The translations under genes and the position numbers were made by a program. Source: an archaeon (GTDB lineage: Archaea; SpSt-1190; DYHY01). From it: DNA of 64,000 bases. Below the pieces are notes generated by a model. The model did not search any database. It saw only the letters and a program-made list of their open reading frames with translations, and had not been told where the DNA came from. Positions 1 to 61,969 of this stretch are shown here, in pieces (position 1 is the first letter of the stretch; each line of letters starts with the position of its first letter). The stretch lies in assembly GCA_043803745.1 (NCBI GenBank), contig JAZDJS010000049.1, positions 13,920 through 77,919 of the forward strand, in the 5' to 3' direction.

Positions 1-378
1 GCACCGATAAAACCGACAATTCCTTTCTCCGACCTTGAGAAAATAGATGTCAGGGTCGGGACAATAGAGGCAATCGAGGATGTCGAAAAATCCGACAAAC
101 TCGTCCGGATGATTGTCGATTTCGGCGATCACAAGCGGAAAATACTCGTCGGAATGAAGAAGGAGAGACCCAATGTTTCCCCCGAGGACCCGCCGCTCAG
201 GAGAATCCGGGACGAACTCCTTGGAAGGCAGGCGCTCTTCGTCGTCAACCTAGAACCGAGGAAAATAATGGGAGAGCTTTCCGAGGGGATGATTTTCGAT
301 ATCGGATATGCCGACGGGCTCCTGCCCGTTCTCGCAGTCCCAGAAAAGCCGGTGCCTGCGGGCACGCGGGTCGGGTAG
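1..378 (+). CDS. tRNA-binding OB-fold protein (CsaA/Trbp111-like), 5' partial
   Basis: Frame 1 is open from base 1: PIKPTIPFSDLEKIDVRVGTI...SDKL...VVNLEPRKIMGELSEGMIFDIG, typical of the family. Carries an apparent 12-aa insertion near 165-200. Confidence 0.85.
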   Translation, partial: APIKPTIPFSDLEKIDVRVGTIEAIEDVEKSDKLVRMIVDFGDHKRKILVGMKKERPNVSPEDPPLRRIRDELLGRQALFVVNLEPRKIMGELSEGMIFDIGYADGLLPVLAVPEKPVPAGTRVG

Positions 379-428
379 CGAAAATCAGTTAGATATTTAT
401 CCGAGAAGTTCCGGGGCGTTTTTCAGCC

Positions 429-1382
429 GTGGCCGAAACTCCGCATAAGAAGAAAAGGGCGTTCTCCCTCCCGAAGGAAAATTTAAGGCTTCTTCTTGCG
501 GCGATTAAGCCGATACCGTTCATTCCCTTCGAAGGAAGGTTCCAGGAATACAAGGGGAGGATCGCGCCCATGGAGAACCTGACAATGATCTCTCCTGTGA
601 AAAGCTTCCTTTTCCCCGACGGCGCTGAAAGCTTCCGCTTCAACCTGAAAGGCCAGGCTGTTGTGAAAAAGGGAAACGCGCAGAAGGAGAAGATAGTTTT
701 TGGAGTAAATCCCCTCGACATTCTCGCGCTCGAAACCCTTGAGAGCATCTTCAGAAAGAACCCTGCATATTCCGGGAGAAGGAAGGCAACCCTGATTATC
801 GGAATGGGCGACTATTCCCGGGCGGGAGCTGCCTTTGACGTTTTCTTCCATGACAACGGACTTGACTATCTTGCTGTTGCGGGAACTCCCCGGGGGGAAA
901 GGTTCCTTGCCAAATACAGGAAATTCTTCGGGGCAACCGATACGCAGGTCCCTGAAACTGGCAGGAGGGATTCTCTACTGATTGACCCCGAAAAGCTCCG
1001 AGAGGCGGTCAAGAACGCCCCGAAGGAAGTTTGGGAAGAGGTTGCAAGAACCTGCCTTGGCTGCGGGATATGCTCATATGTCTGCCCGCTCTGCTACTGC
1101 TTCGAGGTTGACGATTCGGTCCCGATTGGCGAGAAAACCGGCGCCCGCTGCACCCGCTGGGATTCCTGCATGCTTGAGAGCTTCTCGGCCGTTGCCGGGG
1201 GGCACGTTTTCCAAAAGGAGCTTTCCTCGCGGATAAAGAACTGGTATTATCACAAGTTCGCGCGGGCAACTGCTGAGCGGGGGACGCCGGACTGCGTTGG
1301 CTGCGACAGATGCTTCCATTTCTGCCCGGTTGCAATAAATTTCAGGGAGGTTTTGTCAAAATGCCAGTCGAAGAGCCGATAA
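429..1382 (+). CDS. hydB: Group 3b NiFe (sulf)hydrogenase beta subunit, 4Fe-4S dicluster
   Basis: CLGCGICSYVCPLCYCF, RWDSC and CVGCDRCFHFCP motifs; first gene of the hydBGDA order. Confidence 0.85.
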   Translation: MAETPHKKKRAFSLPKENLRLLLAAIKPIPFIPFEGRFQEYKGRIAPMENLTMISPVKSFLFPDGAESFRFNLKGQAVVKKGNAQKEKIVFGVNPLDILALETLESIFRKNPAYSGRRKATLIIGMGDYSRAGAAFDVFFHDNGLDYLAVAGTPRGERFLAKYRKFFGATDTQVPETGRRDSLLIDPEKLREAVKNAPKEVWEEVARTCLGCGICSYVCPLCYCFEVDDSVPIGEKTGARCTRWDSCMLESFSAVAGGHVFQKELSSRIKNWYYHKFARATAERGTPDCVGCDRCFHFCPVAINFREVLSKCQSKSR

Positions 1383-2167
1383 GGGCAAAGGTTGCCGAGG
1401 CGAAGCGGATTTCTTCAGATGTCATACATCTGACCCTGAGGCCTGAGAGACGGATGGAAAACTGGAAACCGGGGCAGTTCCTAATGCTTTCGGTTTTCGG
1501 GTTCGGCGAAATCCCGGTCGGGTTCGCGTCATATGGAAAGAATGAGTTCGATGTTGCCGTAAGGACGATAGGCTCGGTTTCCGGCAAGCTCTTTTCAGCT
1601 GAAAAGGGAGATTATGTTGGCGTGAGGGGCCCCTTCGGGAACGGATTCGATGTCAAGGCCCTGAAGGGACGGGATCTGATAATGGTTACCGGCGGCTGCG
1701 GAATCCCGCCGTTCCGCTCCCTGATACATTATGTCGAAAAGCACAGGAAGGATTTCGGGCAGGTCTGGCTTGTCTATGGGGCGCGGACGCCGCAGGACCT
1801 CCTCTTCTCCGAGGAATTCCCCAACTGGGAAAAGTTCATGGAAGTGCTGGCAACAATTGACAGGGCCGCTCCTGGATGGGCGGGCTGCGTTGGCTTTGCG
1901 AACCAAAGGCTCGCGGACATCAAGCTCGAGAAACCTGAGAATGCGACGGCAATACTCTGCGGTCCCCCGATGATGTATCGGCCGACCGTCGAATCCCTCA
2001 AGAAAATGGGGCTTGCCGACCAAGACATCCTTCTCTCCTTCGAGCGGAGAATGAAGTGCGGGGTTGGCGTCTGCCAGCATTGCGCAATAAACGAGAAATA
2101 CGTCTGCAAGGAAGGGCCGGTTTTCAGCTACAAGCAGGTAATGGAGGAAATGCCCGATGCGTTCTAG
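1361..2167 (+). CDS. hydG: Sulfhydrogenase gamma subunit (FAD/NAD-binding, 2Fe-2S)
   Basis: KPGQF, RGPFGNGF, GGCGIPP, CGPPMM and MKCGVGVCQHC...CKEGPVF motifs. Start moved to ATG 1361, which follows GGAGG at 1346-1350. Confidence 0.9.
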   Translation: MPVEEPIRAKVAEAKRISSDVIHLTLRPERRMENWKPGQFLMLSVFGFGEIPVGFASYGKNEFDVAVRTIGSVSGKLFSAEKGDYVGVRGPFGNGFDVKALKGRDLIMVTGGCGIPPFRSLIHYVEKHRKDFGQVWLVYGARTPQDLLFSEEFPNWEKFMEVLATIDRAAPGWAGCVGFANQRLADIKLEKPENATAILCGPPMMYRPTVESLKKMGLADQDILLSFERRMKCGVGVCQHCAINEKYVCKEGPVFSYKQVMEEMPDAF

Positions 2168-2969
2168 CAAAAAGGCGGGTGCGGACTTGCGTCCTACAGT
2201 CCTCCGCAGAGGACTTGCGGACTTGCGTCCTACAGTAGCAATCTACGACCTTACCGACTGCGAGGGCTGCGAGCTTGCGTTTGTTCCGATTGTCGAGAAG
2301 ATTTTGAAAAACGCGCGGATTGTGGAATGGCGGCTCGGACAGGAAAGGAAGATTCCCGTGGAAGGGAAAATCGACGTTTCCTTCGTTGAGGGCTCGCCAA
2401 TGACTCCTGAAGACAGGGAGCTCATGATTGAGCTGCGGGAGAGAAGCAAGACAATAGTCTCACTTGGAGCATGCGCGTGTGTCGGCGGGGTCCCGAGCCT
2501 TGCTGACAAGAGGGTCAGGGAGAAATTCATGTCCCTCATCTATTCCCCGGAATACAAGTCGAAAAGCAATGTCCCGGCGGAACCCCTTGACAGGACAATA
2601 AAGGTCGATTATTACCTCCACGGCTGCCCGGTTCTTCCGGAGACTGTCGGATGGTTCCTTGAGCGGATCCTCATAGGGAGGATTCCGGACAAGTTCGGGG
2701 GATATCCGGTCTGCCTTGCATGCAAGGCGCGCGAGAACAAGTGCCTCCTTCTGGAAGGCAAGCCCTGTCTTGGTCCGGTTTCGGCCGGGGAATGCGGGGC
2801 GCCCTGCCCAAGCTTCGGAAAGGTTTGCTATGGCTGCACAGGAAGGGTCCGGGGCGCGAACATTCCCCAGATGAAAGCTGAGCTTGTGAGAATCCTGGGA
2901 AGTGAGGCGCTTGCCGAAAGCCATCTGAGGATATTTCTGAAAGACTGGAAGGTGGAGGAGAGAGGCTGA
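2157..2969 (+). CDS. hydD: NiFe hydrogenase small (delta) subunit
   Basis: CEGC, VEGS, LGACA..GG and GCP motifs plus a C-terminal Cys cluster (VCLACK...CLGPV...CGAPCP...CYGC). Confidence 0.88.
   Translation: MRSSKKAGADLRPTVLRRGLADLRPTVAIYDLTDCEGCELAFVPIVEKILKNARIVEWRLGQERKIPVEGKIDVSFVEGSPMTPEDRELMIELRERSKTIVSLGACACVGGVPSLADKRVREKFMSLIYSPEYKSKSNVPAEPLDRTIKVDYYLHGCPVLPETVGWFLERILIGRIPDKFGGYPVCLACKARENKCLLLEGKPCLGPVSAGECGAPCPSFGKVCYGCTGRVRGANIPQMKAELVRILGSEALAESHLRIFLKDWKVEERG
2180..2236 (+). repeat. 36-nt in-frame insertion: 21-bp direct repeat around a hairpin
   Basis: TGCGGACTTGCGTCCTACAGT at 2180-2200 and 2216-2236; hairpin AGTCCTC-CGCA-GAGGACT spans the junction. Confidence 0.85.
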
Positions 2970-3023
2970 AGCGGATGCCGAAGTCTGAACCCAAACCAAA
3001 TCGGATGAAGTGAAGAAAAAATA

Positions 3024-4223
3024 ATGGCAACTGACTATATTTCAAAAATCGAGGGGCATGGGCGGATTGAGGTCGACTTTCTCAAGGGAAAAGCAGAACT
3101 GCACATAGAGGAAGGGGAGCGGCTTTTCGAGGGGATTGTCGTTGGCCGCAGGTATGAGGACGTCCATTTCATTACTCCGCGGATATGCGGGGTCTGCCCG
3201 ACAGCCCATAACCTGGCGACAATACGGGCTATTGAAGATGCGTTCAAAATCAGGGCAACTCCGACAGCGGTCGCGCTCAGGAAGGCGATGCTTTCCGCGC
3301 AGATTGTCCAGAGCCACACGCTGCACCTCTTTTTCCTTGCCCTGCCCGACTTCCTCGGGGTTGATTCCGGGGCGGACCTGATGAAGAAGAATCCGAAGCT
3401 GCTTAAGAAAATCCTCGCAGTCAAGAAAATGTGCGACGCGGTTCTTCGGGGAATCGGGGGGCGGGAGGTCCATCCGACCACGACCATTGTCGGCGGCTTC
3501 ACCCAGTTTCCGGAGTTCCACCGGGCTGAAGAGCTAATAGACCTTGCGCGGGAAACCATACCTATTGCTGAAGAGCTGATGGAGGTCGCCAAAAAGGCAA
3601 TCGGAGATTTCGCGCCGGTCCACAGGAAAACTACCTACCTCGCCCTTGAGGATTATTACGGCGATTCCTTCGTCGAGACGAGCGAGCGAGCCCGCTTCGA
3701 CCCGAAGAAATACCAAGAAAACATTTCCGAAACTGTCAAGCTTTACTCAAGCGCCAAGTTCGGAACCCATAAGGGGCGCGGTTTCCTCGTTGGCGCGCTT
3801 GCGAGGAGAATCCTCGCCGGGAAGATGCAGCCGACAACAAGCATTTTTGACAACAACATTGCCCAGGGAGAGGAGATTTTCGAGTTCACTGAAGAGATTG
3901 AAAAGCAGCTTGCCCTTGCAGTCTCGACAGGCCTCCGGAAGGATGACTGGTCCGTTCCTGTCGAGCCGAGGGAGAGCTTTGGGGTGGGGGCTGTCGAAGC
4001 GCCGAGGGGAACGCTCTATAACAAGCTCTGGTTTGATTCGGGCGGGATATGCACAAAGGCTGACATCGTCACCCCGACCGCGCAGAACCTGACAAACATC
4101 GAGGATGATGCAAACGCGCTCCTTGAGCAGAACCGGGGGAGGAAGACTGAAGCCGACTTAAAGAGGCTTTTGGAAATGCTTGTTAGGGCATATGACCCGT
4201 GCATCACCTGCTCGGTGCACTAG
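3024..4223 (+). CDS. hydA: NiFe hydrogenase large (alpha) subunit, group 3b
   Basis: KIEGHG, L1 motif RICGVCP, EAPRG, and L2 motif DPCITCSVH at the very C-terminus. Confidence 0.93.
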   Translation: MATDYISKIEGHGRIEVDFLKGKAELHIEEGERLFEGIVVGRRYEDVHFITPRICGVCPTAHNLATIRAIEDAFKIRATPTAVALRKAMLSAQIVQSHTLHLFFLALPDFLGVDSGADLMKKNPKLLKKILAVKKMCDAVLRGIGGREVHPTTTIVGGFTQFPEFHRAEELIDLARETIPIAEELMEVAKKAIGDFAPVHRKTTYLALEDYYGDSFVETSERARFDPKKYQENISETVKLYSSAKFGTHKGRGFLVGALARRILAGKMQPTTSIFDNNIAQGEEIFEFTEEIEKQLALAVSTGLRKDDWSVPVEPRESFGVGAVEAPRGTLYNKLWFDSGGICTKADIVTPTAQNLTNIEDDANALLEQNRGRKTEADLKRLLEMLVRAYDPCITCSVH

Positions 4224-4738: not shown

Positions 4739-4794
4739 ATTGATTGAATGGGAACTGAAAAGTTTAAAAGAATGCCTGCTCGTCGTCCCAGAAA

Positions 4795-5019: not shown

Positions 5020-5104
5020 TATAAAGCAAGTTCCGGAAAGAACAAAATGTCTGGCGTGAAGTTTCTGACATATCGGGCCTGGCTGTATTACCTTTCGACC
5101 AGTT

Positions 5105-5115
5105 CCCCCCCCCCC
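5105..5115 (+). repeat. Poly-C(11) tract at an apparent frameshift in the FkbM gene 5' region
   Basis: The ORF from ATG 5047 stops at 5127; removing one C joins it in frame to 5177..5854. Confidence 0.75.
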
Positions 5116-14910: not shown

Positions 14911-15025
14911 CGGGTCCGTGGGCTAGTGGGCTAGTGGCCTGTGTCCTCCTCAGAGGACACTGATGCTCTGAGGAGCATTATGATATAAGGCACTAGACCG
15001 CGGGACCAGCTGAACAGAGACAAAC
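14911..15025 (-). repeat. Fold-back insertion at the 5' end of tRNA-Val(CAC)
   Basis: Displaced tRNA 5' copy at 14911-14929, antisense copy CACTAGACCGCGGGACC at 14991-15007, and two hairpins at 14941-14978. Confidence 0.8.
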
Positions 15026-15098: not shown

Positions 15099-15186
15099 CT
15101 TGAACTCAACTTACCGCTTCGCGGATTTATCTTTGAGTTCAAGGACTTTCGCCTTCGCCCTTTTGGGGCTCGGCTCCAGCCACCAT
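15099..15186 (+). repeat. 88-nt hairpin element shared with tRNA-Val(TAC)
   Basis: Matches the reverse complement of 55196-55283 with 1 mismatch; stem CTTGAACTCAA/TTGAGTTCAAG, tail GACTTTCGC...GCTCGG. Confidence 0.92.
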
Positions 15187-15380
15187 GAATCCTACCGGTT
15201 CCCGAACATTAGTGAGGCCCGTGCATTTCAGCACGGGAATTCCGGCCGGGTCCCTCCGACTTCGGCTGGATTGTCTGCAGGCAACTCTGAGGAGGAACTA
15301 CGCACTGCGTGCCTATGCTCGGTCACCCCTCGCTTTCCGTCCGGTTCGTAAGCGCTAGCGAAATCCGTGCCTCAACCGGA
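15187..15380 (+). repeat. Further stacked hairpin units with a tRNA-Val 3'-end copy
   Basis: AATTCCGGCCGGGTCC (15238-15253) with antisense arm CGGCTGGATT; tails ...ATGCTCGG and ...CGAAATCCGTGCCTCAA, the latter also present at 55034-55072 on the minus strand. Confidence 0.7.
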
Positions 15381-17905: not shown

Positions 17906-17983
17906 AGCGGGGTAGAGTAGCCTGGAGTGCTCGTCGGGCTCATAACCCGAAGATCGGACGTTCAAATCGTTCCCCCGCTACCA
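17906..17983 (+). tRNA. Initiator tRNA-Met(CAT), CCA encoded
   Basis: A1-U72 pair (AGCGGGG/CCCCGCT); three consecutive G-C pairs in the anticodon stem TCGGG-CTCATAA-CCCGA. Confidence 0.96.
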
Positions 17984-18201
17984 TCTTTTTTACCCGCGGG
18001 GGAACTAATTGGGTGGTTCTCCAGCCGCGGCTGGATCCAATCCGCGGATTGGAAAATCCACTCCCCGCTACCATTCTTTCCATTATGCGGGGGAACGAAT
18101 ATTGGTGGTTCTCCGGACTGCAACACGAGTCCGTGCATTGGCACGGAAAATCTCCGTGTGACTGCACACAGACCTCGCCAAGGCTCGGCACTCCCCGCTA
18201 C
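17984..18201 (+). repeat. Two stacked fold-back units at the tRNA-iMet 3' end
   Basis: Each unit has GCGGGGGAAC (antisense to the tRNA 3' end; 17996-18005, 18087-18098), GGTGGTTCTCC, hairpins, then CTCCCCGCTAC(CA) (18061-18073, 18191-18201). Confidence 0.88.
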
Positions 18202-29698: not shown

Positions 29699-30298
29699 AT
29701 GGCTGTTCCCTTCGGGAAAATCGCTTTTGAGGAAGGCGGCGACAGGACTTTTGACGAAACGAGGAAAATCTCGAAATATTACGTGTCCTGGGAGGAGTTC
29801 CTAGGGCTTGCCGAGTCAGTTGCCGAGAAACTAGACCCGCTGAAATATGACATCGTGCTCGGGGTTGCGAACGGCGGGCTTTCCTTCGCGCAGACGGTTT
29901 ACGAAAGGATACGGGACGGGAACCGGGAACTTTCCTGCGGAAGCGTCCAGCTTCGGAGATACCGCCAGGAGGGGGACGGGCGCGGAGTCGAGTTCTTTTA
30001 TTTCCCGGATGAGCTTCTGCGGGGAAAAAGGACTCTTGTGTGCGACGAGGTTGCCGATGACGGGATCACCTTGCAGGCGCTCAAGACAAGGCTTGAGGAA
30101 ATAGGATGCTCGACGGAATATGCAACTGTTTTCGTGAAGGAAGGCTCTGCTTTCAATCCAGACTATTACGGAAGGCGGATCCCAAAAACTGTCCGGCATA
30201 ACGGCGAAGCATATCTCAACTGGCTCGTCTTCCCCTGGGAGAAGGAATGGGCGGAGTTTTATCTCGGCAGGAGGGCTCCGGCAGCCAAGAGAACCTGA
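29699..30298 (+). CDS. Type I (purine) phosphoribosyltransferase
   Basis: GVANGG, PRPP loop LVCDEVADDGITL, PDYY and WLVFPWE. Confidence 0.85.
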   Translation: MAVPFGKIAFEEGGDRTFDETRKISKYYVSWEEFLGLAESVAEKLDPLKYDIVLGVANGGLSFAQTVYERIRDGNRELSCGSVQLRRYRQEGDGRGVEFFYFPDELLRGKRTLVCDEVADDGITLQALKTRLEEIGCSTEYATVFVKEGSAFNPDYYGRRIPKTVRHNGEAYLNWLVFPWEKEWAEFYLGRRAPAAKRT

Positions 30299-30831
30299 CG
30301 CGTCCGTTCGGGAACCGTTCCAGTTACCGTGATGTATGGGATTTCTTCCTCATCCAGGAGCCGCACAAGCTCCGAATCTATCGCAAGCCTCAGGTCCGGC
30401 CTGTCAGGCCTGACGCCGTCCCGCTCAAAGGGGATTTCGGGAGGGAGATAGACAACCAATTCATACCTCCTTTTCGCATGACCGATTCCCGCGGTCCGCA
30501 GGGGGAAGAGAAGCTCCCGAGGAACCCCGAATTCCTCTGTGAAAACGTACGCGGACGCTACTCCGTTAAGAGTCCCGCCCTCCGTGACGAAATGGGCTTC
30601 CCTGTTTTCGAATGTTGCCGTTTCCGCTAGGGCCGCAAGGGAAAGATATGCCGCCTCAATGGGCCTGTCAAGGACGCGCAGGTCGCCGGCGCCCCTCGCT
30701 TCCCGGAATTTTGCTTTCACGGAATCCGCCGAGACCGGAAGCGCAAGCTCGCGCGAAAGCTCGGCAACAAGAACCGATTTTCCCGAGGAATACGTGCCGA
30801 CAACCGCGATTCGCGTGTATTTCGAGGTCAC
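30259..30831 (-). CDS. NadR/Ttd14-like AAA (P-loop kinase) protein
   Basis: RIAVVGTYSSGKS, YLPPEIPFERDGVR and VTGTVPER motifs. Confidence 0.8.
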   Translation of the reverse strand: MTSKYTRIAVVGTYSSGKSVLVAELSRELALPVSADSVKAKFREARGAGDLRVLDRPIEAAYLSLAALAETATFENREAHFVTEGGTLNGVASAYVFTEEFGVPRELLFPLRTAGIGHAKRRYELVVYLPPEIPFERDGVRPDRPDLRLAIDSELVRLLDEEEIPYITVTGTVPERTRQVLLAAGALLPR

Positions 30832-30907
30832 TTCGGCTGGAATCGGGGCGGATTTTTAGCTTTTTGACTGACTTTTTATATCGGGAGTCGCTTGAAATGG
30901 ATTCAAA

Positions 30908-32377
30908 ATGAATGCAGTTTTCAAGAGGCACAAGTCGGCGCTGGTCCTCCTCGCAATACTCGCCTTCGCCCTTTCCCTCCGGCTCCAGTACTTTGTCGGA
31001 CCGGGACTCAACGATGACGTCGATTATTTCTACAGCGCAAGAGCGGTTTCCAGGGGGGATTTCGGCTCCCTTTACGGGGGAAGCATAAACGCGATAAGGT
31101 CCATGGTGACCGCCCCGATTGCGTTCTTCTTCCGGCTTTTCGGGAGGACTGACAAGTTTGTCGCTGAAATCTGGCCCCTCCTTTGCTCCCTAGGAACTGT
31201 TGTCCTTACCTATTTCCTTGGGAAAGGGCTTTTTTCGCAAAGGACGGGCCTGCTCGCGGCGTTCGTTCTTTCCTTCTTCCCTGTCGATGTTGCCTTCTCA
31301 ACCCAGATAGTTCCCACAACGCAGGTCGTCTTCTTCTTCACCCTGACGCTTTTCCTGCTTTTCCGCTCCCTGACCAAAAAACGGGCGCCGGGGAAATTCC
31401 TTTTCCTTGCCGGGATTTCCGGCGGGCTCGGATATCTTGCCAACATAATGATGGTTTTCGTCCTCTTCTTCTCGGTCGGGCTCTTCCTGTTGATGTACTG
31501 CCGCGGATTTAGGAGGCTTCTGCGCGCGGCAATCCCGATTATCGTCGGATTCCTCCTTGTCTTCCTTGTCGAGGCGTGCTTCATGTTCGCTTTCACCGGG
31601 AACCCCCTGCACCGGCTGCAGGTAATACACGAGACTGAGAAGATGATCGGGACGAACACTGCAATGGAATATTATCCGAAGGTGATGGGAACCATCACGA
31701 ACCCGGACTATTCGGCCCATCAGGGGAACCTGGGGCTGCATTTTTTCGCCTTCGTTGCGGGAGCTGCTTTCCTGACGGCTTTCCGGAGAAGGAAGGGAGC
31801 GATTTTCCTTGCGCTAACCTTTCTCCTGATAATGTCCTATTTCCAGTTCGGGATAATGACTTCGACGCTCAAGCCAATCGCGAAATGGGTCAGATACCTG
31901 ATAATATTCGGCCCGATTTTCTCCATCTCAATCGCGGAATTCTTCCGTTCGCTTCTTCCATGGGAAAAATTGACGGCGCCGCTCGCCGCCCTGGTTCTCC
32001 TCTTCGCAACGATCCCGTATCTTGAGGGAACAACAAGGGCATACAACGAGCAGCTGGAACCGTTCAGGGAAACCGCAGAATATCTGGACTCCCTGGAAAC
32101 GGATTCGCCCGTCTATGCGGACGGGACTGCCGCCGCCTTCTTCTCGATTGAGCTCGGGTTCGGAAGGATGATCCGTGTTTTTGACAAGAAGACCGAACCG
32201 GAAAATGTCGCCGGGAGTTATGTTGTACTGAACGGCTCTCGAGGCACCTCCGAAAACCAGGAAATGAGAGGCTATTTGCCGGAATTTGCAAGAAACCCGC
32301 CTGGGAACTTCCGCCTTGTCAGAAAGATAGAGGGCAAGTTCTTCTCGCCGGAAATCTACTATGCGGAGAAAACCTAG
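30908..32377 (+). CDS. GT-C (ArnT/PMT, GT39-like) membrane glycosyltransferase
   Basis: LRL...DDVDY in the first loop, many TM helices, RYL motif. Confidence 0.82.
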   Translation: MNAVFKRHKSALVLLAILAFALSLRLQYFVGPGLNDDVDYFYSARAVSRGDFGSLYGGSINAIRSMVTAPIAFFFRLFGRTDKFVAEIWPLLCSLGTVVLTYFLGKGLFSQRTGLLAAFVLSFFPVDVAFSTQIVPTTQVVFFFTLTLFLLFRSLTKKRAPGKFLFLAGISGGLGYLANIMMVFVLFFSVGLFLLMYCRGFRRLLRAAIPIIVGFLLVFLVEACFMFAFTGNPLHRLQVIHETEKMIGTNTAMEYYPKVMGTITNPDYSAHQGNLGLHFFAFVAGAAFLTAFRRRKGAIFLALTFLLIMSYFQFGIMTSTLKPIAKWVRYLIIFGPIFSISIAEFFRSLLPWEKLTAPLAALVLLFATIPYLEGTTRAYNEQLEPFRETAEYLDSLETDSPVYADGTAAAFFSIELGFGRMIRVFDKKTEPENVAGSYVVLNGSRGTSENQEMRGYLPEFARNPPGNFRLVRKIEGKFFSPEIYYAEKT

Positions 32378-32385
32378 GGAAACCC

Positions 32386-32781
32386 TTAGGGCGCGCCCAT
32401 CCGTCCGGAGAATTCCTGGCTTATTTCAAGCGACGAGCCCTTGACGGATACGAGGGTTCCGCAGCTTTCGGAAAGGCATCCGCCTATCTTCGCGGTTGAA
32501 CAATCGACCTTCCCGACACAGGAAATCGCAATCTGGCTTGAGAAGCTCGAGCCCTTCTGGATTCCGAGCTGGAAGGACTGGATGTTCCGCCGGAACGAGT
32601 AAGGGGCGGCGTATATCTCCGAAATCGTCCTGTTGAAATCCGAGACAATGGAAATTTCCTGGCTCGGCCTCTCCGCCCCGCCCCGGTACCCATTCCGAAC
32701 AATTGCGCCAATTGCAAGAAGGTTCAGGACTATTATCACCGCGGCAATCACGAAGAACTGGGCTCGGCGCCGTCCCCCCAT
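32386..32781 (-). CDS. Pilin-like protein with class III signal peptide
   Basis: MGGRRRA|QFFVIAAVIIV; TGATG overlap with the upstream gene. Confidence 0.75.
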   Translation of the reverse strand: MGGRRRAQFFVIAAVIIVLNLLAIGAIVRNGYRGGAERPSQEISIVSDFNRTISEIYAAPYSFRRNIQSFQLGIQKGSSFSSQIAISCVGKVDCSTAKIGGCLSESCGTLVSVKGSSLEISQEFSGRMGAP

Positions 32782-40352: not shown

Positions 40353-41060
40353 TTATCCTACCGAGAGCGCAAGATTCATCCTGTCATTGCTATTATATGT
40401 TACTGCCGCAAGTTCCGCCGAGGAGCCGAATATTTCCCCTAGGACGCTGCGGGAAAGCTTCACCGGGTAATATGCAACCTTCCCGCCCGCGAAAGCCCTT
40501 ACGCAGGAAGGAGGGTCGTTCCCGATCCGGCAGGACGAGTCGTTGGCCTTTGAGAAGGAAATCTCATATGACGCTCCCGAAAGCTCCCTCGGGAAGCGCA
40601 GGAAAAGGGTGAAGTTGGATTCAGGATTCCGGTCTGCGAGGATGTCCGCCTGGGCAAGGGCAAACGCAAGGTCGCTTGCAGCGGCGGAAAGGCTGTTCTT
40701 TATTTCCGAATCCTTGATTCCCTCGGAGATTTTCCCGAACATCATTGCGACAAGCGTGAGAATCATGAAAGCCGAGAGGGAGAGGAGGGAGAATTCGATA
40801 ATTTCCTTTTGTGCGCGGCGAGCCTGCCGGCATATTTGCGCACAAAAGACTTCGCTCCGCTCAGCCTTCTGAGCCCGCCGATACCCGAATCCTATTGGGC
40901 TCAGAAACTTCCGCTTCGCTGCAGCTTTTTGGACTCTGCCCAAAAAACCTCGCTGATGCTCGGCCTTCTGGCGTTTCAGTCCAGGAAATTCCGCCAGATT
41001 TCTCCAGTGCTGAAGCACGGACCCTCTAAGGAGGGGCTGAAGCTCAACCTTCTTTCTCAT
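40353..41060 (-). CDS. Pilin-like protein whose leader is extended by four in-frame insertions
   Basis: RRA|QKEIIEFSLL plus a hydrophobic helix; upstream leader repeats RRAQK, RVQK and KRQK. Confidence 0.75.
   Translation of the reverse strand: MRKKVELQPLLRGSVLQHWRNLAEFPGLKRQKAEHQRGFLGRVQKAAAKRKFLSPIGFGYRRAQKAERSEVFCAQICRQARRAQKEIIEFSLLSLSAFMILTLVAMMFGKISEGIKDSEIKNSLSAAASDLAFALAQADILADRNPESNFTLFLRFPRELSGASYEISFSKANDSSCRIGNDPPSCVRAFAGGKVAYYPVKLSRSVLGEIFGSSAELAAVTYNSNDRMNLALSVG
40805..41047 (+). repeat. Four stacked fold-back insertion units (60, 60, 39 and 84 nt)
   Basis: Each starts C(C/T)TT(T/C)TG, folds onto its own antisense copy, and ends GCTCAG, GCTGCAG, GCTCGG or GCTCAA. Confidence 0.9.
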
Positions 41061-52822: not shown

Positions 52823-53170
52823 ATGGATTCCGTCGAGAAGATTTACAGCACGCTCATGAAGGACACCCTTGAGATGGTCTGCCGGATGGCCGGACCCTCC
52901 CTCGCATTCCACGCCGTTGCGTCAGCCCAGGAAAAGTTCTCGGAAAAGCTGAAGGGACTCGTTTACACGCGCTATGACATGTCGATTGAGCTCAAGGATT
53001 CGGGCAAGAACGAAAAAGCCCAGCTCCTTTCCCAGATTTTCCAGGAGATAATAAACTATGCGCGCGAGGTAATAGGGGACAACATTTACATTTACGCCGA
53101 GAAGGGGATTGACGGCGTGAGGGGCGATGCTGAGAAGGAAAAGGTTGCCCTGCCCAAAATAGCGTCATAG
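52823..53170 (+). CDS. Small soluble helical protein (output-domain-like)
   Basis: Two related helix-G-helix motifs (CRMAGPSLA, REVIGDNIY); resembles the C-terminus of 56731..57813. Confidence 0.6.
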   Translation: MDSVEKIYSTLMKDTLEMVCRMAGPSLAFHAVASAQEKFSEKLKGLVYTRYDMSIELKDSGKNEKAQLLSQIFQEIINYAREVIGDNIYIYAEKGIDGVRGDAEKEKVALPKIAS

Positions 53171-53351
53171 ATTTTTCTGCTATTTTGGACTTTGCTACAC
53201 TCAGCCGAAGATTGCCTCCTAAGCGAACTTTCTGCACTCTTCGACTTTGCTCCGCTCAGCCCAAAATAGCGTCTTAGAAGTTTTAGGCTATTTTGGACTT
53301 TTGCCCATGCTCGGCCGAAGATTGCGTCTTGAACGTAATTTGCAATCTTCG
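53153..53351 (+). repeat. Four stacked fold-back units, each starting with a recoded PKIAS* gene end
   Basis: Units start at 53153, 53205, 53260 and 53315; tails ACTTTGCTACACTCAG, ACTTTGCTCCGCTCAG and ACTTTTGCCCATGCTCGG. Confidence 0.92.
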
Positions 53352-53471
53352 ATGCTGTTCCAACCCGACCTGAAATGGCCTTCCGAGCGCCTTTCTTTTG
53401 GAAAATTTTCCCTGTCCGAATAGGGGAAACCCAGTAAAAAAGTTTATTAGTGTGTTACGCTGTATTACTCT

Positions 53472-53695
53472 CGGCCACTGACACACACCAGCAAACCGAA
53501 AAGGAACCCGAAAGGGAAGCTGGAAAAAAGCCCTACGAAACGAGGGCGACAAGAACTTCAGTATGGCTTTCGCTCCCCGCCACAGAACCTCCGGTTCACA
53601 CGTGGCTAAAGGGAGTCCAAAAGCAAACAGTTGGGGAGGTGGCCGGGCGTCCCGGAACGGGCGAATTAACTACCCGGAGGGACGCCTCCCAGATT
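53472..53695 (+). ncRNA. Candidate structured non-coding RNA of unknown family
   Basis: AAAAAGTTTATTA promoter at about 53437-53449; CCAGC..CCC-GAAA-GGG..GCTGG junction; GGCGTCCC/GGGACGCC stem; no convincing ORF. Confidence 0.4.
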
Positions 53696-53702
53696 TCTAC
53701 CT

Positions 53703-54893
53703 TCACTCGGAAGGCTCGAAATAGGGAACTGGAAGTCTTGAGGCATCTTCTCTCGCGTCACTCTTGCTCGTAACTGGAAGGAAGGCCTGCGCAAGGGAGT
53801 TTCTCGAAATCCTTGCGGTCAGATTTCCCGGAGTTGAGAGGTATGCGTCCTTGGTGGTCTGCTCGAAAGCTTCGTAAACGTGCGTCCGCATAAGGGAAAC
53901 CAAATTCCCTGTCCGGAGAAAGTCAAAGTAAATTTCTAGATTCGCCTCAGCGTCTGCGAGCGCCTCGCTGCCGTCAGCGCCCCATCTTGAAAGTAAGTCT
54001 GTTGTCTCTGAAATTGCTCTAACTTCGTCAAGAAAGAGCGTACGGAAATCGAATGGAAAGTGTCTCCAGTAATCAAGATGGTCGCCTTCATGCAAAAGGG
54101 TCTCTGCAATTCGGGGGCTCGTTCTTCCTTTGCGGTCGCAGCCGAAAAGAATTGCGTTCGGGGAAGGATAGTCCCTGTGATAAGGAGCTGAGCAATTCAC
54201 GCCCTTTGAAAGGAAAATATAAGAAATTCCGTGAAGCTTTGTACGCTGGCGCTCGGACAGGAACGGGTAAGCTTCTTCAAAGGCGATAGCAATCTCACTC
54301 GTTCCTCTTTCAGCAAGCCACTCACTTAGCTCATCGGAAACCGGAACGTATTTCCAGGGGACCCGTTTGTCCGAGACTGTTGCAAAAGTTTCCTTGGGTC
54401 CCGTCTTTTTGGACAGCATTAAATCAGCATAATCTTTCGGAAGGCGCAAGATTTCAGTCATTCCGTCGCCAACAAGACTCAACTCGACTGGCGGAGCAGA
54501 TTCAGTTAGCCCAAGGTTTCCTGAAAGATCATCTAAAAGCGCCGCCTCAAAGACGGGACGTATAAGGAGCCTATCTGCAAGCTCCGTCTTCATTACGATT
54601 TGAGGTAACTCGTTTTCCGAAAATCCGTATTTCGGGCCCCAGATTGAAAGTCCGTCTCGAACCTGTTCAATCAAACTTTCAGCTGAACCGGTTGCCGAAC
54701 CCCAGAGGCGGACGTCTTCGAGCTTTTTCGTCAAATAACTAGAAGGTCCCGAAACTTCCCTTGAAATTTCCGTCAAAAGCGCTCGTTCGGCAAGGGTGTA
54801 TTCCACCAATCTGTCAACTAGGGGGGGTCTTGGAGGACACTTCAAAGTTGCTTCCGGAACGTTTACTGTTGCTCCTGAAGTTGTTCCAAGCAT
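53703..54893 (-). CDS. Hypothetical protein with HExxH zincin motif
   Basis: ETLLHEGDH followed by a downstream E (DEVRA); GGAGG upstream of the start. Confidence 0.6.
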   Translation of the reverse strand: MLGTTSGATVNVPEATLKCPPRPPLVDRLVEYTLAERALLTEISREVSGPSSYLTKKLEDVRLWGSATGSAESLIEQVRDGLSIWGPKYGFSENELPQIVMKTELADRLLIRPVFEAALLDDLSGNLGLTESAPPVELSLVGDGMTEILRLPKDYADLMLSKKTGPKETFATVSDKRVPWKYVPVSDELSEWLAERGTSEIAIAFEEAYPFLSERQRTKLHGISYIFLSKGVNCSAPYHRDYPSPNAILFGCDRKGRTSPRIAETLLHEGDHLDYWRHFPFDFRTLFLDEVRAISETTDLLSRWGADGSEALADAEANLEIYFDFLRTGNLVSLMRTHVYEAFEQTTKDAYLSTPGNLTARISRNSLAQAFLPVTSKSDAREDASRLPVPYFEPSE

Positions 54894-55025: not shown

Positions 55026-55283
55026 GCGAGGCCGTCCGGCTGAGGCACGGATTTCGTTAATGCTCAAGAACCTGCTTGAAGACTACGCGCGTTCTTTACG
55101 CCCGTCAACGGATTTTTCTTTCAAGAAAACTGGGTTGTAGTGGGCCCGGCCGGCTGAGGCGTAGCAACCGAAGTCGGAGGGAACAGGCCGGAATGATGGT
55201 GGCTGGAGCCGAGCCCCAAAAGGGCGAAGGCGAAAGTCCTTGAACTCAAAGACAAATCCGCGAAGCGGTAAGTTGAGTTCAAG
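55026..55283 (-). repeat. Stacked units downstream of tRNA-Val(TAC), including the shared 88-nt element
   Basis: 88-nt element at 55196-55283; GCCTCAG|CCGGCCGGGCCCACT (tRNA 3' copy at 55139-55153); GCCTCAG|CCGGACGG at about 55032-55046. Confidence 0.85.
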
Positions 55284-55356: not shown

Positions 55357-55473
55357 ACTACTACTCTCTGTCCTATTGGGCTCATGTGTCTAAATATCTT
55401 TCAGGGGTTTTTGCGAAACCCCTTTTTTGGTGAAACTTTCGTAAAGTTTCCCATCTAGACCACGGACCCACTA
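55357..55473 (+). repeat. Fold-back insertion at the 5' end of tRNA-Val(TAC)
   Basis: CTAGACCACGGACCCACTA at 55342-55360 and 55455-55473; degenerate antisense arm at 55377-55392; two hairpins in between. Confidence 0.82.
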
Positions 55474-57813: not shown

Positions 57814-57868
57814 TGCCTGGAACCCGGGCGCAGAGAGTTAAATAGATTCACGCCCTCTTTTTTCCGGA

Positions 57869-58324: not shown

Positions 58325-58887
58325 GCGCGCTTGCAGACGAGGAGGTTGCCGCTGCCCTTTCCGGAACGGATAACGCTTTCCAGGAAAGTTTTCGTTGGGA
58401 TTCTTTTCTTCCGGCCGACTGCCTTGTGGGGATCGCTTATCAAGACGGATTCGTTTGAAGCAGACAGGACAATTACGAAATGGTTGGAATGCGTTCGGTC
58501 TTCCCACTCCGTTTTTCTGGAAAGCAGGGGCGTTTTCCGGTCATATGCAAGCCGGTTAAGGAGGACTATTGCCAGCTCGCCCGTTCTGACTGAAGTTTCC
58601 AGAGCCCGAATAAAATTCTTTTCTGAGCGCTGGAAAACCTTCGCAGAAACCTTGCGCCCAGAAAGCCGGGAAATTGCTTTTGCAAGTCCGGCAAGCTCAG
58701 TTCCCGCGCGGAGGGTGGTCCCGGCAACGGTCGCAATGCGTTTCTCCGAAGGGGCTTTATTTTTCCCGAAAAACGCCATCACCGACCTTGCGCATGCGGG
58801 CCCGCAGGTGTAAAGGGTCTTTTGCGAGAAATAAGGAACTTTCTTCAGAGCGCGCGACTTCTTTGGCAGCTGCCTCAAGCTACGCAT
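58321..58887 (-). CDS. Peptidase C39-like protein
   Basis: VPYFSQ....TCGPAC, HFVIV and ISDP catalytic triad. Confidence 0.82.
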   Translation of the reverse strand: MRSLRQLPKKSRALKKVPYFSQKTLYTCGPACARSVMAFFGKNKAPSEKRIATVAGTTLRAGTELAGLAKAISRLSGRKVSAKVFQRSEKNFIRALETSVRTGELAIVLLNRLAYDRKTPLLSRKTEWEDRTHSNHFVIVLSASNESVLISDPHKAVGRKKRIPTKTFLESVIRSGKGSGNLLVCKRA

Positions 58888-58893
58888 TTCTGA

Positions 58894-59073
58894 CTATGCT
58901 TTTGCTTTCACGGCTTTCTTCTTCGCACGGAGGCCCTTGTACCCGCATTTTCTGCAGCTTACAAGTCCGCGCTTGACCCTGATTGGGTCTGAACGGGTCT
59001 TGCAGTTGCACCTCATGCAGATGAAGACGCCCCTGAAAAGACGGGATTGCGTGATTGGATTAGGTACTGCCAT
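58894..59073 (-). CDS. rpl40e: 50S ribosomal protein L40e (not in the supplied ORF track)
   Basis: Manual translation: MAVPNPITQSRLFRGVFICMRCNCKTRSDPIRVKRGLVSCRKCGYKGLRAKKKAVKAKA*. Confidence 0.92.
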   Translation of the reverse strand: MAVPNPITQSRLFRGVFICMRCNCKTRSDPIRVKRGLVSCRKCGYKGLRAKKKAVKAKA

Positions 59074-59590
59074 TTTTTCTCTTTGAAAGGACGCTTTCTT
59101 GAGTTTTTAATACTTGGCTTCGCGTCCTGCAGGAGGCGTAAAGGTCGAGAAGTTCGCCGTTGAGAGCTGCGAATGTTTTGCCCCACTTTGGCTGGGCCAA
59201 GAGAAGTTCGGCCTGCTCCTTCCGCCCAAGAATCCAGAGTGCGCCTGCAAAAGCCTCGAGCGTCGAGAGTTTCGTTGGCTTGCCGAAATTCACGGGGTTT
59301 GCGGGGACAAGATACGGGAGGGCGCGGGAGGTCATCGCGGAAATGAACGAGTTCCTTTTCACAAGCTCGTTCCAGGAGCAGTCGAAAACGGTAATCCCTT
59401 CCGCGCTTGCGAGCTCAGAGTCCTCCGGAGAGAGCGCTTCCGGGGAAAGCGGGTTGAGGAGAACTCCCCGCGGCGCCTTGATTTCGGAGGCAAGCCCTAT
59501 TTTCAGGAGGATTTCGCCCGTGCATCTCTTAGGGTCGCATTCGTGGGAATGGACCAAGTGCAGGAGAATCGGCGTTACGGTCGGGACCAT
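59060..59590 (-). CDS. tsr3: 16S rRNA aminocarboxypropyltransferase (DUF367)
   Basis: ECDPKRCTG, DCSW and RALPYLVPANPVNFGKPTKLSTLEA motifs. Confidence 0.93.
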   Translation of the reverse strand: MVPTVTPILLHLVHSHECDPKRCTGEILLKIGLASEIKAPRGVLLNPLSPEALSPEDSELASAEGITVFDCSWNELVKRNSFISAMTSRALPYLVPANPVNFGKPTKLSTLEAFAGALWILGRKEQAELLLAQPKWGKTFAALNGELLDLYASCRTRSQVLKTQESVLSKRKNGST

Positions 59591-59670
59591 TAGATTCTTT
59601 CCTTTTACTCGGTTTAAATAAACCCTTTTTCCCGGAAACGGTTAATAACGCGTTTCAGATAGATTCGGGC

Positions 59671-60291
59671 ATGAAAAAGGGATTCCTAAAGTTCTTCCAC
59701 GCATGCGAGAAATTGAAGGACGAGCTGCGCCGCTCGCACACTACCAAAGGCCGGCGGGAAAGCGTTGCAGACCATTCCTGGCGGGTTGCGCTCCTTGCGC
59801 TTGTTCTTGCGCCCAAGAAGGTTGACCGGGAGCGCGCAATAAAATTAGCGCTTGTCCACGACCTTTGCGAGGTTTTCGCAGGAGATACGTATGTTTTCGG
59901 AGGGAACAGGAAGGCTGGACGAGCTGCGAGAGAGAGAAAATCAATGAGCCGGCTTGCTGAGCTTCTCCCGGACGAGAAGGTCCGAAAGGAAATCCTTTCG
60001 CTCTGGACCGAAGTTGAAGAGCGGAAAACTCTTGAAGGAAAATTTGTGAAAGAGCTTGACAAACTTGAAGTTCTTATCCAGTACAATGAGGCGCCCCTCA
60101 GGACATGGGGTGTTGCCGAAAAGAGAATGCATTGGGGGCTTGCGGGAAGACATGCTAAAACCCTCGGGTTCCTAAAGGAATTTGCGGAGGAAATAGATGC
60201 GGAAACGAAGGTCAAGCTTGGAAGGAAAGCGCGAAAGCTTACTGAATCCGATTATGAAACCTATTTCGCTTCGCTTGCCGGAAAATCGTGA
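59671..60291 (+). CDS. HD-domain 5'-deoxynucleotidase (YfbR/HDDC2-like)
   Basis: LKDELR, ESVADHSWR, LVHDLCE..AGD and DKLE motifs. Confidence 0.88.
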   Translation: MKKGFLKFFHACEKLKDELRRSHTTKGRRESVADHSWRVALLALVLAPKKVDRERAIKLALVHDLCEVFAGDTYVFGGNRKAGRAARERKSMSRLAELLPDEKVRKEILSLWTEVEERKTLEGKFVKELDKLEVLIQYNEAPLRTWGVAEKRMHWGLAGRHAKTLGFLKEFAEEIDAETKVKLGRKARKLTESDYETYFASLAGKS

Positions 60292-60522
60292 GTTGCATCG
60301 GCAAAACGGCTTTTCCAAACAGTTATAAACCGTCCGCGGGAACTTCACTTGTTCTTAAAAAAGCGAGTTGCGGATTTTCTTTTGAAGAAAAAACGAGTAA
60401 CAACCGAACGGTTTTAAGATAGCGAGAGGGAGTCCGCGGCGTATGCCGAGGTCCGAACTTGAGCGAAGCGAAATCCAGCGCAGCTGGACAAAAAAGAAAC
60501 AAGAGAAAGTGAATTAGGAAAT

Positions 60523-61851
60523 ATGTCAGTTGAGATTACCGCTATTGGCGGATATGACGAAATTGGAAAGAATATGACCGTCGTTTCATTCGGCGGGGAG
60601 GCGATTGTGCTTGACATGGGAATACATGTCGAACGCCTCATGGGCGAGGATTACAACATTGCCCGGATGAGCCGGGAAGAACTCCTCGGGATAGGCGCGA
60701 TTCCGGACTACCGGCGCATCAGGGAAATCAGGGAGAAGGTTGTCGGGGTTTTCATCGGTCACGCGCACCTTGACCACGTTGGAGCCGCAGGGAAACTTGC
60801 CGGGCTTTTCAAGGGGGTGCCGTTCTACATGACCCCGTTCACGGCAGGGGTTTTCAAGAGCCAGATTGACGATGAGGAAAAGTACAGGGGCCAGAAGCCT
60901 GACGTCAGGATAGTGACTGCTGGCGCAAAGATCGCAGCCGGGCAGAATTTCGTGGTTGAGTTCATCGCGGCGGCGCACTCGATTCCGGATGCAACGATAC
61001 TTGCGGTGCACACCCCGAAGGGGATTTTCCTCTATGCGCTCGACTGGAAGTTCGACGAACATCCCGGAATCGGGAACCGGACGAACATCGCGCGGCTCGC
61101 GCAGCTCGGGGAGAAGGGACGGGTCCTTGCGGTCGCCTTCGACACAACGAGGATTGAGCGGAGCGACCCCACGAAGGGGGAAGCCTGGGCGAAGGAGCAG
61201 ATTGTGAACAAAATCGGCGAGCTTGACGGGGAGGGGATAATAGCGACAACCTTCGCATCCCACATTTCCCGGCTCCAGACCCTGATAGATGCTGGACGCG
61301 ACCAGAAGCGGAAGGTCCTCCTTCTCGGGCGGAGCATGGAGAAATACACCAATGTTGCAAAAGAGCTGCGGCTGATTTCCCTCGGACGGGCGGATGTCTG
61401 GGGGAGGCCGAAATCTATTCAGGCAACCCTTTCGAAGATAAAGAACGACAAGGAGAAATACCTGCTCATCGTGACCGGGAACCAGGGGGAGCCGGGTTCG
61501 GTGCTCGACCGGATGGTCCAGGGGGTCCTGCCCTACAAGTTCGACAATCTTGACAACGTCCTGTTCTGCTCCGAGGCAATCCCGACCCCGATGAACCTTG
61601 CCTGCAGGAAGGATATAGAAAGGCGGCTCAGGTCAATGGGCGCGCACGTTCACCTCGGCTTGCATGTCTCAGGGCACGCATCCGCAGCGGACATTGAAAG
61701 GTTCGTAAAGCTCGTGAAACCGGAGGAAATAATCCCGACGCACGGGGGTATTGACAAACTGCTCCGGGCAAGGAAGCTCATGGAAAGCATCGGCTATCCG
61801 GCTGACAAGGTTCATCTACTGCACGACGGAGAGTCAGTTAGGCTGAATTAG
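60523..61851 (+). CDS. rnj: Ribonuclease J (archaeal beta-CASP)
   Basis: GGYDEIGKNM, HAHLDHVGA, HSIPD, DWKFD, TTFASHISR, HVSGHA and PTHG motifs. Confidence 0.92.
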   Translation: MSVEITAIGGYDEIGKNMTVVSFGGEAIVLDMGIHVERLMGEDYNIARMSREELLGIGAIPDYRRIREIREKVVGVFIGHAHLDHVGAAGKLAGLFKGVPFYMTPFTAGVFKSQIDDEEKYRGQKPDVRIVTAGAKIAAGQNFVVEFIAAAHSIPDATILAVHTPKGIFLYALDWKFDEHPGIGNRTNIARLAQLGEKGRVLAVAFDTTRIERSDPTKGEAWAKEQIVNKIGELDGEGIIATTFASHISRLQTLIDAGRDQKRKVLLLGRSMEKYTNVAKELRLISLGRADVWGRPKSIQATLSKIKNDKEKYLLIVTGNQGEPGSVLDRMVQGVLPYKFDNLDNVLFCSEAIPTPMNLACRKDIERRLRSMGAHVHLGLHVSGHASAADIERFVKLVKPEEIIPTHGGIDKLLRARKLMESIGYPADKVHLLHDGESVRLN

Positions 61852-61969
61852 GTAGCAACTGACTCGAACGTCCTCGGCAGGGGACGGAGAAAGCGTGAAG
61901 TTGAGTTAGTCTCGCTTTCGACATCCGGGCAACGGGAGCCTGGGCGGAGAGTCAGTTAAGCTGAACTAG
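61825..61969 (+). repeat. Three copies of the rnj 3' end with fold-back arms
   Basis: DGESVRLN* (61825-61851), DGESVKLS* (61883-61909), GGESVKLN* (61943-61969); antisense arms at 61857-61865 and 61910-61919. Confidence 0.88.

Follow-up and report, generated by a model that had tools for sequence, protein, structure and literature searches.

CTX phage at dif and integron attC sites present a duplex-like recombination site as a folded single strand, with conserved structure, variable sequence, regeneration of the target, and stacking of elements, and they rely on Xer or IntI tyrosine recombinases and on one fixed target or core sequence. Elements of the IS200/IS605 group carry subterminal hairpins, have their cleavage sites read by base pairing with a guide of 4 to 5 nucleotides (nt) at the hairpin foot, insert just 3′ of their target, lack inverted terminal repeats, and make no target duplication. 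Here, we describe small hairpin units in a 64,000-nt window of an archaeal genome (part of contig C49, JAZDJS010000049.1; positions count from the first nucleotide of the window) that share single features with these and other known systems but fail a defining feature of each one tested. The units are about 15 to 130 nt long, noncoding, and located at the very termini, 5′ or 3′, of genes for tRNAs and proteins. The terminal 12 to 27 nt of the gene (T, which usually starts with CC) are present as two direct copies flanking the unit, one joined to the gene, which is whole, and the other beyond the unit; many units also carry an arm antisense to T (T′). We read them as small nonautonomous hairpin elements that insert at gene termini and rebuild them, an interpretation that we regard as about evenly poised between right and wrong. 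A limited search of the literature found no description of such units.

The foot of the units, with outer pairs, a 2-by-2 internal loop, an inner stem, and a variable tip, is similar in layout to attC, and by analogy with CTX a folded single-strand substrate may be involved, the T:T′ hairpins folding well. However, no tyrosine recombinase was found in the source genome (G000), a wide variety of gene ends are targeted, and cassette genes are lacking. As in IS200/IS605, YY/RR pairing brackets the hairpin right at the junction, whereas a second target copy of 12 to 27 nt flanks the units here, TnpA was not found in G000 or five relatives, and the TnpB zinc ribbon was not found in G000. Casposons are described as targeting tRNA 3′ ends, making target site duplications, and being able to lie in tandem; their duplications measure about 14 to 15 bp, and some casposons target the 3′ end of a protein gene. 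They are large elements with Cas1 and terminal inverted repeats, whereas here no Cas1 was found, copies are 12 to 27 nt long, and unit ends are not inverted as judged by eye. The same variation in copy length and the lack of visible inverted termini separate the units from DDE-type MITEs (miniature inverted-repeat transposable elements), which have such termini and a target duplication of constant length.

Rickettsia palindromic elements are conserved units of about 100 to 150 bp that leave no target copy, whereas here target copies flank locus-specific arms. Similar to them, units here lie in frame, in the leader of a pilin-like gene and in the gene at 2157; palindromic units in frame within coding genes are on record for Rickettsia (PMC3733652). 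The same source describes repetitive extragenic palindromes and bacterial interspersed mosaic elements (REP/BIME) as short palindromes at bacterial gene ends, arrayed with short linkers and sometimes placed over stop codons or in frame in open reading frames (ORFs), and the units here are likewise short, palindromic, at gene ends, and in arrays with short linkers. However, the REP stem is conserved, whereas arms here are locus specific and match the adjacent gene end, with only the foot conserved; no GTAG or CGTC tag was seen in the units; no Y1 transposase (REP-associated tyrosine transposase, RAYT) was found in any of the six genomes searched; and the main text of PMC3733652 never uses the word “duplication” and hence describes no target duplication. 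The initial annotation of this window did not recognize the units from a described element, and as tested they match neither REP nor MITE families, given the locus-specific arms, the lack of a Y1 gene and of inverted termini, and the variable copy length. The e14 prophage at the 3′ end of Escherichia coli icd, as outlined in PMC13626634, supplies a replacement gene end and leaves the displaced end as a pseudo-copy with mostly synonymous differences. Here too, as with e14 and phage 21, synonymous differences separate a replacement gene end from the one displaced; however, e14 is a 15-kb element with its own integrase, and the units here are tens of nucleotides long, stacked, hairpin-shaped, and without a recombinase gene. 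Unlike integrative-element scars, moreover, they have no integrase-bearing body between the repeated ends, all of which are spaced by <350 nt.

Unit anatomy and the hairpin foot

G000 is a metagenome-assembled genome (MAG) of 1.23 Mb in 51 contigs (54% G+C, 90% complete) from a phylum with just 17 species genomes in the genome collection searched. Many of its contig ends overlap their neighbors by exactly 141 nt, presumably the assembler's largest k-mer, and several tRNA arrays, those of His and Lys among them, reach contig ends. The relatives used for comparison belong to the same genus (G001), family (G003), order (G004), and class (G006) or to another phylum (G019); Y1 transposase and tyrosine recombinase profiles were searched in G000, G001, G002, G003, G004, and G009, all MAGs of 84 to 94% completeness. 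Comparisons are between species only: the genome and metagenome collections each yielded one relative of the 115-amino-acid (aa) gene discussed below, and the protein database yielded three orthologs of the pilin-like protein at ≤62% identity.

The initial annotation had described a 16-nt tail common to unrelated loci. The sharing is real. Rather than a linear 16-mer, however, the tail forms the base, or foot, of a structured hairpin of variable length; this foot is conserved and covarying, with the layout GA-YY-TC-(inner stem-loop of 5 to 35 nt)-TC-RR-CC, in which the outer T copy begins at the CC. Covariation was assessed in 27 linkers anchored only on the T boundary and on a left-foot pattern neutral with respect to pairing. 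The Y1:R1 pair is Watson-Crick in all 27 (permutation mean, 15.8) and Y2:R2 in 25 (permutation mean, 13.6), values reached by 0 of 2,000 permutations in either case, although these figures overstate independence because some of the linkers are related. The first two inner-stem pairs hold in 23 and 24 of the 27 linkers, respectively. A genome-wide table of foot combinations has its excess on the diagonal, with CT/AG observed 29 times (14.3 expected), TT/AA 47 times (31.2 expected), and CC/GG 24 times (11.1 expected). Read on the other strand, the TC/TC internal loop is a tandem G-A, and a number of the inner hairpins have GNA triloops. The T-copy junction falls at the same foot position across unrelated loci, and the foot is found in either orientation relative to transcription, both downstream and upstream of genes.

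A scan of the genome for the structured foot returned 147 matches, compared with 56 to 70 in five shuffles. An association of the tail with T/T′ hairpins no stronger than chance would have counted against the initial annotation; in fact, foot and target copy are clearly linked: for 30 of the 100 feet able to pair, the next 12 nt also occur as a copy within the 170 nt upstream, versus 2 of 113 feet unable to pair. Of these same feet, 40 of the 100 and 9 of the 113 are intergenic, in a genome that is 9.8% intergenic by crude ORF calls. As a literal 16-mer, the tail is less distinctive, with five matches in the window against 1.65 expected (a weak excess, since 5 of 100 shuffles reach five) and four exact matches genome-wide against none in any of 10 shuffles; once ≤2 mismatches are allowed, the genome-wide excess disappears (35 versus 23 to 40 in shuffles). 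Exact 8-mer T/T′/T triads formed 27 strand-wise clusters versus 6 to 11 in three shuffles, a scan that is too strict because copies differ at synonymous sites. Spacing between feet is 40 to 130 nt, too short for cassette genes. Rfam 15, at the gathering threshold and at E up to 5, returned for the window only tRNAs and two subthreshold matches overlying the tRNA-Val genes.

Copies of gene ends at tRNA and protein genes

At tRNA genes, we searched each side for a 14-nt copy of the gene end with ≤2 mismatches within 350 nt. In G000, a downstream copy of the 3′ end was found at 19 of 40 tRNAs and an upstream copy of the 5′ end at 7 of 40, and neither type occurred on the wrong side of any of the 40. 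The same search found copies in G001 (13/30), G003 (12/31), and G004 (3/11), and not in G006 (0/12) or G019 (0/13). Gene-end copies are therefore a property of the lineage, not of one window, with about 40% of tRNAs affected in each of three species. Which tRNAs carry units varies; for example, Phe and both Glu tRNAs do so in G000 only and Ile in G001 only. The tRNA arrays in the window are as follows.

14912-15025 (+): upstream of tRNA-Val(CAC); 5′-end copy 14912-14937, antisense arm 14991-15007, TATA-like stretch between them
15100-15322 (+): downstream of tRNA-Val(CAC); hairpin 15100-15143, foot-like linker 15144-15174
15238-15254 (+): 3′-end copy downstream of tRNA-Val(CAC), followed by a long linker ending at 15322
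17973-18201 (+): 3′ array of the initiator tRNA-Met; three 3′-end copies at 17973-17984, 18063-18074, and 18189-18201
17996-18005 and 18087-18096 (+): antisense arms of the initiator tRNA-Met array; foot linker 18172-18188
55139-55282 (−): downstream of tRNA-Val(UAC); hairpin 55240-55282, foot linker 55154-55174, 3′-end copy 55139-55153
55455-55473 (−): 5′-end copy of tRNA-Val(UAC), 113 nt upstream of the gene

The main loci of the initial annotation are thus present at the coordinates it gave, namely, both ends of both tRNA-Val genes, the three copies at the initiator tRNA-Met 3′ end, the pilin-like leader, and the ends of the 115-aa gene and the RNase J gene (rnj). Its description of units placed between direct copies of a gene or tRNA end, with the gene itself intact, is supported, as at the tRNA-Val genes. 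All three in the genome have a common 14-nt 3′ end and about 46 nt of common flank, and tRNA-Val(GAC) carries an extra 53-nt unit and a second 14-nt T between flanks matching those of the two paralogs. This is one clean filled-versus-empty comparison, and the ends of the 53-nt unit are not inverted repeats by eye. Units also stack at one junction, as had been proposed, and some stacked units are identical: G000 Glu-CUC (two copies), G000 Arg-UCG (two copies), and G003 Arg-UCG (three copies). These identical tandem units show recent amplification.

Where a tRNA has no unit, a conserved T-rich trailer adjoins its 3′ end. At the class-1 units read, the same trailer is located past the final T copy and is not duplicated with the unit. 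After many tRNAs (e.g., C19 3500-3620 and C21 19900-20085), the trailer consists of a T-rich hairpin and then a short GC-rich motif, recurs in G001 and G003, and is probably the native terminator.

In the protein genes of the window, arrays lie in the 5′ coding region of the pilin-like gene, which is on the minus strand and contains four hairpins and a fifth copy holding the ATG (40806-41060), and at the 3′ end of the 115-aa gene at 52823, where linkers of 16 to 18 nt lie between four hairpins. Their components, together with the rnj end, are listed here.

40806-40848 (+): hairpin 1, 5′ coding end of the pilin-like gene; arm 40806-40816 equals gene sequence (T0), antisense arm 40838-40848
40849-40864 (+): linker 1 (16-nt tail), a foot hairpin whose inner stem has 2 bp and whose loop has 3 nt
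40865-40906 (+): hairpin 2; T1 40865-40880, antisense 40897-40906
40907-40924 (+): linker 2, degenerate foot
40925-40946 (+): hairpin 3; T2 and antisense
40947-40963 (+): linker 3, CC/GG foot variant
40964-40998 (+): hairpin 4; T3 40964-40979, antisense 40992-40998
40998-41047 (+): long linker with two inner hairpins; related module in contig C36 and after tRNA-Phe
41048-41060 (+): most distal T copy, holding the minus-strand ATG of the 235-codon ORF and adjoining the native promoter
53153-53188 (+): true end of the 115-aa gene; T0 53153-53170 (stop 53168-53170), antisense arm 53179-53188
53189-53204 (+): linker 1 of the 115-aa-gene array
53205-53243 (+): unit 2; T1 53205-53222 (same peptide and stop, other codons), own antisense 53234-53243
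53244-53259 (+): linker 2 of the 115-aa-gene array
53260-53296 (+): unit 3; T2 53260-53277, antisense 53287-53296
53297-53314 (+): linker 3, a variant ending in the second tail class of the initial annotation
53315-53351 (+): unit 4; T3 53315-53332, antisense 53342-53351
61828-61969 (+): rnj end; T0 61828-61851, antisense 61856-61865, tail, T1 61946-61969

Frame is kept within ORFs, as the initial annotation had noted. In the pilin-like array, distances between successive copies are 60, 60, 39, and 84 nt by hand count, all multiples of three, and the frame is open for 81 codons ahead of the mature N terminus. All orthologs of the pilin-like gene have extended leaders, whose length and unit content differ (leader length was compared among four orthologs). 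Each hairpin at the 115-aa gene consists of an 18-nt copy of the last five codons and stop, closed by an arm antisense to its own copy. The four end copies all translate as PKIAS-stop, and the seven positions at which they differ are all third codon positions or lie within the stop. The earlier claim that T′ follows each variant of T is accordingly borne out at this array, where arms match their own copies; at tRNA units, the antisense arm is barely above chance (see below). The 115-aa gene lacks the array in G001, G003, and one metagenome contig, a difference between species like that in the set of unit-bearing tRNAs. No paralog of the 115-aa gene that might be the source of the variant end copies was found in G000. 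As single strands, the two four-hairpin arrays fold with z scores of −3.8 and −4.7, and 0 of 200 shuffles fold as well.

A crude scan of 1,218 ORF ends (≤3 mismatches in 15 nt) gave 22 matches versus 7 to 16 in four controls and missed the two most diverged PKIAS copies; about 11 matches were convincing by eye and were used for codon analysis. Between the true end and the copies at these 11 protein-gene ends, 6, 10, and 28 differences fall at codon positions 1, 2, and 3, respectively, and 28 of the changed codons are synonymous and 12 nonsynonymous, in agreement with the earlier description of copies differing mainly at synonymous positions. Among the spare copies themselves, position 3 accounts for 22 differences by hand count, position 1 for one, and position 2 for three, and all three of the latter swap one stop codon for another. 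Since drift of dead copies does not predict a third-position bias, each copy may have served as a working gene end, and this pattern in the sequences suggests that each spare copy did so once. Synonymous-only differences between spare copies further suggest an exchange of gene ends between related lineages.

Contig C36 of G000 (30288-32680) holds a tandem pair of paralogous genes, each coding for about 160 aa, whose last five residues are identical; behind each gene lies a long array in which this end recurs in several recoded copies.

Mobile elements, host hairpins, or scars

The anatomy of the units, their excess over chance, the covariation of the foot, its link to the target, the one filled-versus-empty comparison, tandem amplification, and differences between species are directly supported by these results. 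On our reading of the units as small nonautonomous elements, they would enter by recombining at T's CC boundary, perhaps as a single strand folded so that its T:T′ stem imitates the target. The simplest scheme for the order T-loop-T′-linker-T would have the chromosomal T recombine with a unit-length circle or folded strand carrying T-loop-T′-linker; the T brought in would then serve as the expressed gene end, and the displaced T would survive as a spare copy. Further rounds of insertion, together with slippage between T copies, would enlarge the arrays. The enzyme would presumably act in trans, as initially proposed; no candidate gene for it was found. An incoming T that becomes the new gene end would explain why T runs exactly to the stop codon or tRNA end, and it would likewise explain the in-frame insertions in ORFs and the coding-compatible, synonymously differing copies.

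A bolder version of this idea, which we consider unlikely, is that the units represent a new class of miniature mobile element, in which a unit of roughly 50 to 130 nt moves as a folded single-strand dumbbell, its T:T′ stem resembling the target duplex and its foot recruiting a sequence-independent recombinase or nuclease, and integrates at the CC boundary of any gene end that matches the stem, becoming the expressed end. The stem would thus determine specificity, many specificities could coexist in one genome, and spare copies would document one invasion after another by units of diverged relatives. If units are mobile in either sense, they would be a DNA insertion that never breaks its target gene and whose target choice resides in a short stem and not in a protein, which would be relevant to how small genomes tolerate selfish DNA and might offer a principle for programmable integration. 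Even on a conservative reading, some 40% of this archaeal family's tRNA genes have structured add-ons and pseudo-ends, which will confuse the annotation of tRNAs and genes and the calling of attachment sites, and one secreted protein, the pilin-like one, has an 81-codon translated leader built of such units.

Several results weigh against mobility. No match to Cas1 (PF01867), Phage_integrase (PF00589), Y1_Tnp (PF01797), the TnpB zinc-ribbon domain, or RVT_1 was found in G000, which is 90% complete, and the co-occurring enzyme foreseen in the initial annotation, whether a Y1, tyrosine recombinase, or reverse transcriptase gene, was thus not found there. Y1_Tnp was also absent from all five relatives searched (G001, G002, G003, G004, and G009), and a tyrosine recombinase (PF00589) was present in only one of these five, G001, where it adjoins tRNA-Cys in an ordinary island without such units. 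That island (L162 4666-8591, contig C12) comprises tRNA-Cys, a 426-aa tyrosine integrase, a gene of unknown function, and a C5 DNA methylase; 126 nt upstream is a 20-nt copy of the tRNA-Cys 5′ end that runs straight into the usual tRNA trailer, no foot was seen at the tRNA-proximal end, and a search of about 43 kb did not reveal the far attachment site. No free or autonomous form of the units was found, and no distant copy of a tRNA end carrying a linker, which would mark a large element, was found in G000. Since all units are about 15 to 130 nt long and no distant tRNA-end copy was detected, the proposal that they sometimes carry cargo is not demonstrated. A scan of viral contigs returned 32 stretches with the strict linker, a count near chance by rough estimate; only 3 of these extend the stem by at least four pairs, and 5 represent one phage coding region.

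Further objections concern the units themselves. T′ at tRNA 3′ units is barely above chance, with 5.5 of 9 pairs versus 5.1 in permutations (19 of 2,000 reach the observed value), and given this weak antisense arm, targeting guided by base pairing, as initially proposed, is not demonstrated. The architecture is mosaic, with some linkers reversed and some T copies long and bearing a T-loop insert. Isoacceptor tRNAs with common flanks have near-identical bodies (71/75 and 71/74), and gene conversion could be the source of the common flanks. Comparisons of orthologous loci are all between species, and a foot that covaries across species is as compatible with a selected structure as with a signal for transposition. 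The initial interpretation as a whole is therefore partly supported, and the observation on which it was built is confirmed and more extensive than first described.

The selected-structure alternative, somewhat unlikely in our view, takes the units to be functional host hairpins, whether for RNA processing, stability, or termination or as REP/BIME-like DNA sites, that multiply in place by tandem duplication and slippage and leave gene-end copies as by-products. It accounts well for a foot conserved with compensatory changes at the same tRNAs in three species, where neutral flanks no longer align, for identical tandem units, which are the expected slippage product, and for the lack of a detectable transposase or recombinase gene in G000. 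Arrays lie between tRNAs and T-rich trailers and so are probably transcribed, and tandem duplication across a gene end would, we reason, always leave one intact copy. However, a single RNA-binding function explains poorly a foot that occurs in both orientations and both upstream and downstream of genes, and the fixed T-copy junction at unrelated loci, the trailer that is not duplicated with class-1 units, and the lack of any Rfam match at E up to 5 also speak against a host structure. Local duplication and drift, moreover, would not give the third-position bias between spare copies.

That bias is more readily met by stacked scars of conventional integrative elements, i.e., tyrosine-integrase viruses or plasmids carrying replacement ends, whose bodies have since been deleted. 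Duplicated gene ends with synonymous differences are the known signature of e14 at icd, as far as PMC13626634 describes it, partial tRNA copies are presented in PMC9897764 as classical attachment-site remnants, and the G001 integrase island at tRNA-Cys, with its 5′-end copy 126 nt upstream, points the same way. We nevertheless judge scars to be improbable: units are uniformly tiny, with no intermediate remnants and no distant tRNA-end copy in G000; no tyrosine recombinase was found in G000, G002, G003, G004, or G009; the proportion of affected tRNAs is about 40% in each of three species; and a conserved, covarying junction foot, which the tRNA-proximal end of the G001 island lacks, is not expected of unrelated decayed elements. 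An assembly artefact, through collapse or chimeric joining of strain variants, might be suspected in a 51-contig MAG with many 141-nt overlaps between contig ends, all the more since spare copies resemble allelic variants of the gene end, but it is hardly credible. The arrays are interior to a 78-kb contig, there is unique sequence in their loops, linkers, and arms, the antisense arms correspond each to its own copy, and the same architecture recurs in three other, separately assembled genomes. Because units are shorter than the 141-nt overlap and the copies have diverged, there is nothing for an assembler to collapse. Bulge-helix-bulge introns, K-turns, and C/D box RNAs were set aside by eye, as their motifs do not fit; the same holds for diversity-generating retroelements, tRNA-primed retroelements, and CRISPR-like arrays, the genome having yielded neither a reverse transcriptase nor a Cas1 gene.

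No Phage_integrase-family gene was detected in G000, G002, G003, G004, or G009 (MAGs, 84 to 92% complete), and thus no XerA-like recombinase was detected in them. Absence of a XerA-like recombinase is unusual for archaea.

Other features of the window and related genomes

The window also holds hydrogenase genes, RNase J, a MutS-like gene, a tRNA-binding-domain gene, and three tRNAs. Four loci had initially been described as following only part of the unit plan, and the features found at these and neighboring genes are as follows.

2180-2236 (+): in-frame 36-nt duplication near a gene start; 21-nt copies 2180-2200 and 2216-2236
2199-2214 (+): 16-nt hairpin between the 21-nt copies, TCCTC...GAGGA type
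2966-2984 (−): foot linker, with a hydrogenase subunit gene on one side and the gene for the NiFe hydrogenase large subunit on the other; C51 and C12 hold related units
60459-60487 (−): RNase J 5′ leader; foot linker 60459-60474 and adjoining small hairpin, with a near-copy in contig C12

Of the partial cases, the rnj leader has a foot linker and hairpin, the end of the tRNA-binding gene has a palindrome only, with no copy seen, and hypC was not located. What may be the hydD case is the in-frame duplication at 2180-2236.

Downstream of the 115-aa-gene array and a TATA-like box, positions 53465-53790 are well conserved with G001 and the metagenome contig and hold a long GC-rich hairpin with a GGAA loop. 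The region has no Rfam match even at E up to 5 and may be a signal recognition particle-like or other structured RNA. Elsewhere, hairpins with a loop similar to that of the units and variable 8-bp stems occur near tRNAs in other archaeal lineages, at L010 (G037), L009 and L028 (G017), and L021 to L023 (G014, G011, and G009); those at L009, L010, and L028 are foot-like and belong to other phyla. One of the hairpins sits within an apparent long tRNA intron, and two of the small-genome relatives likewise have tRNA 5′ ends in duplicate.

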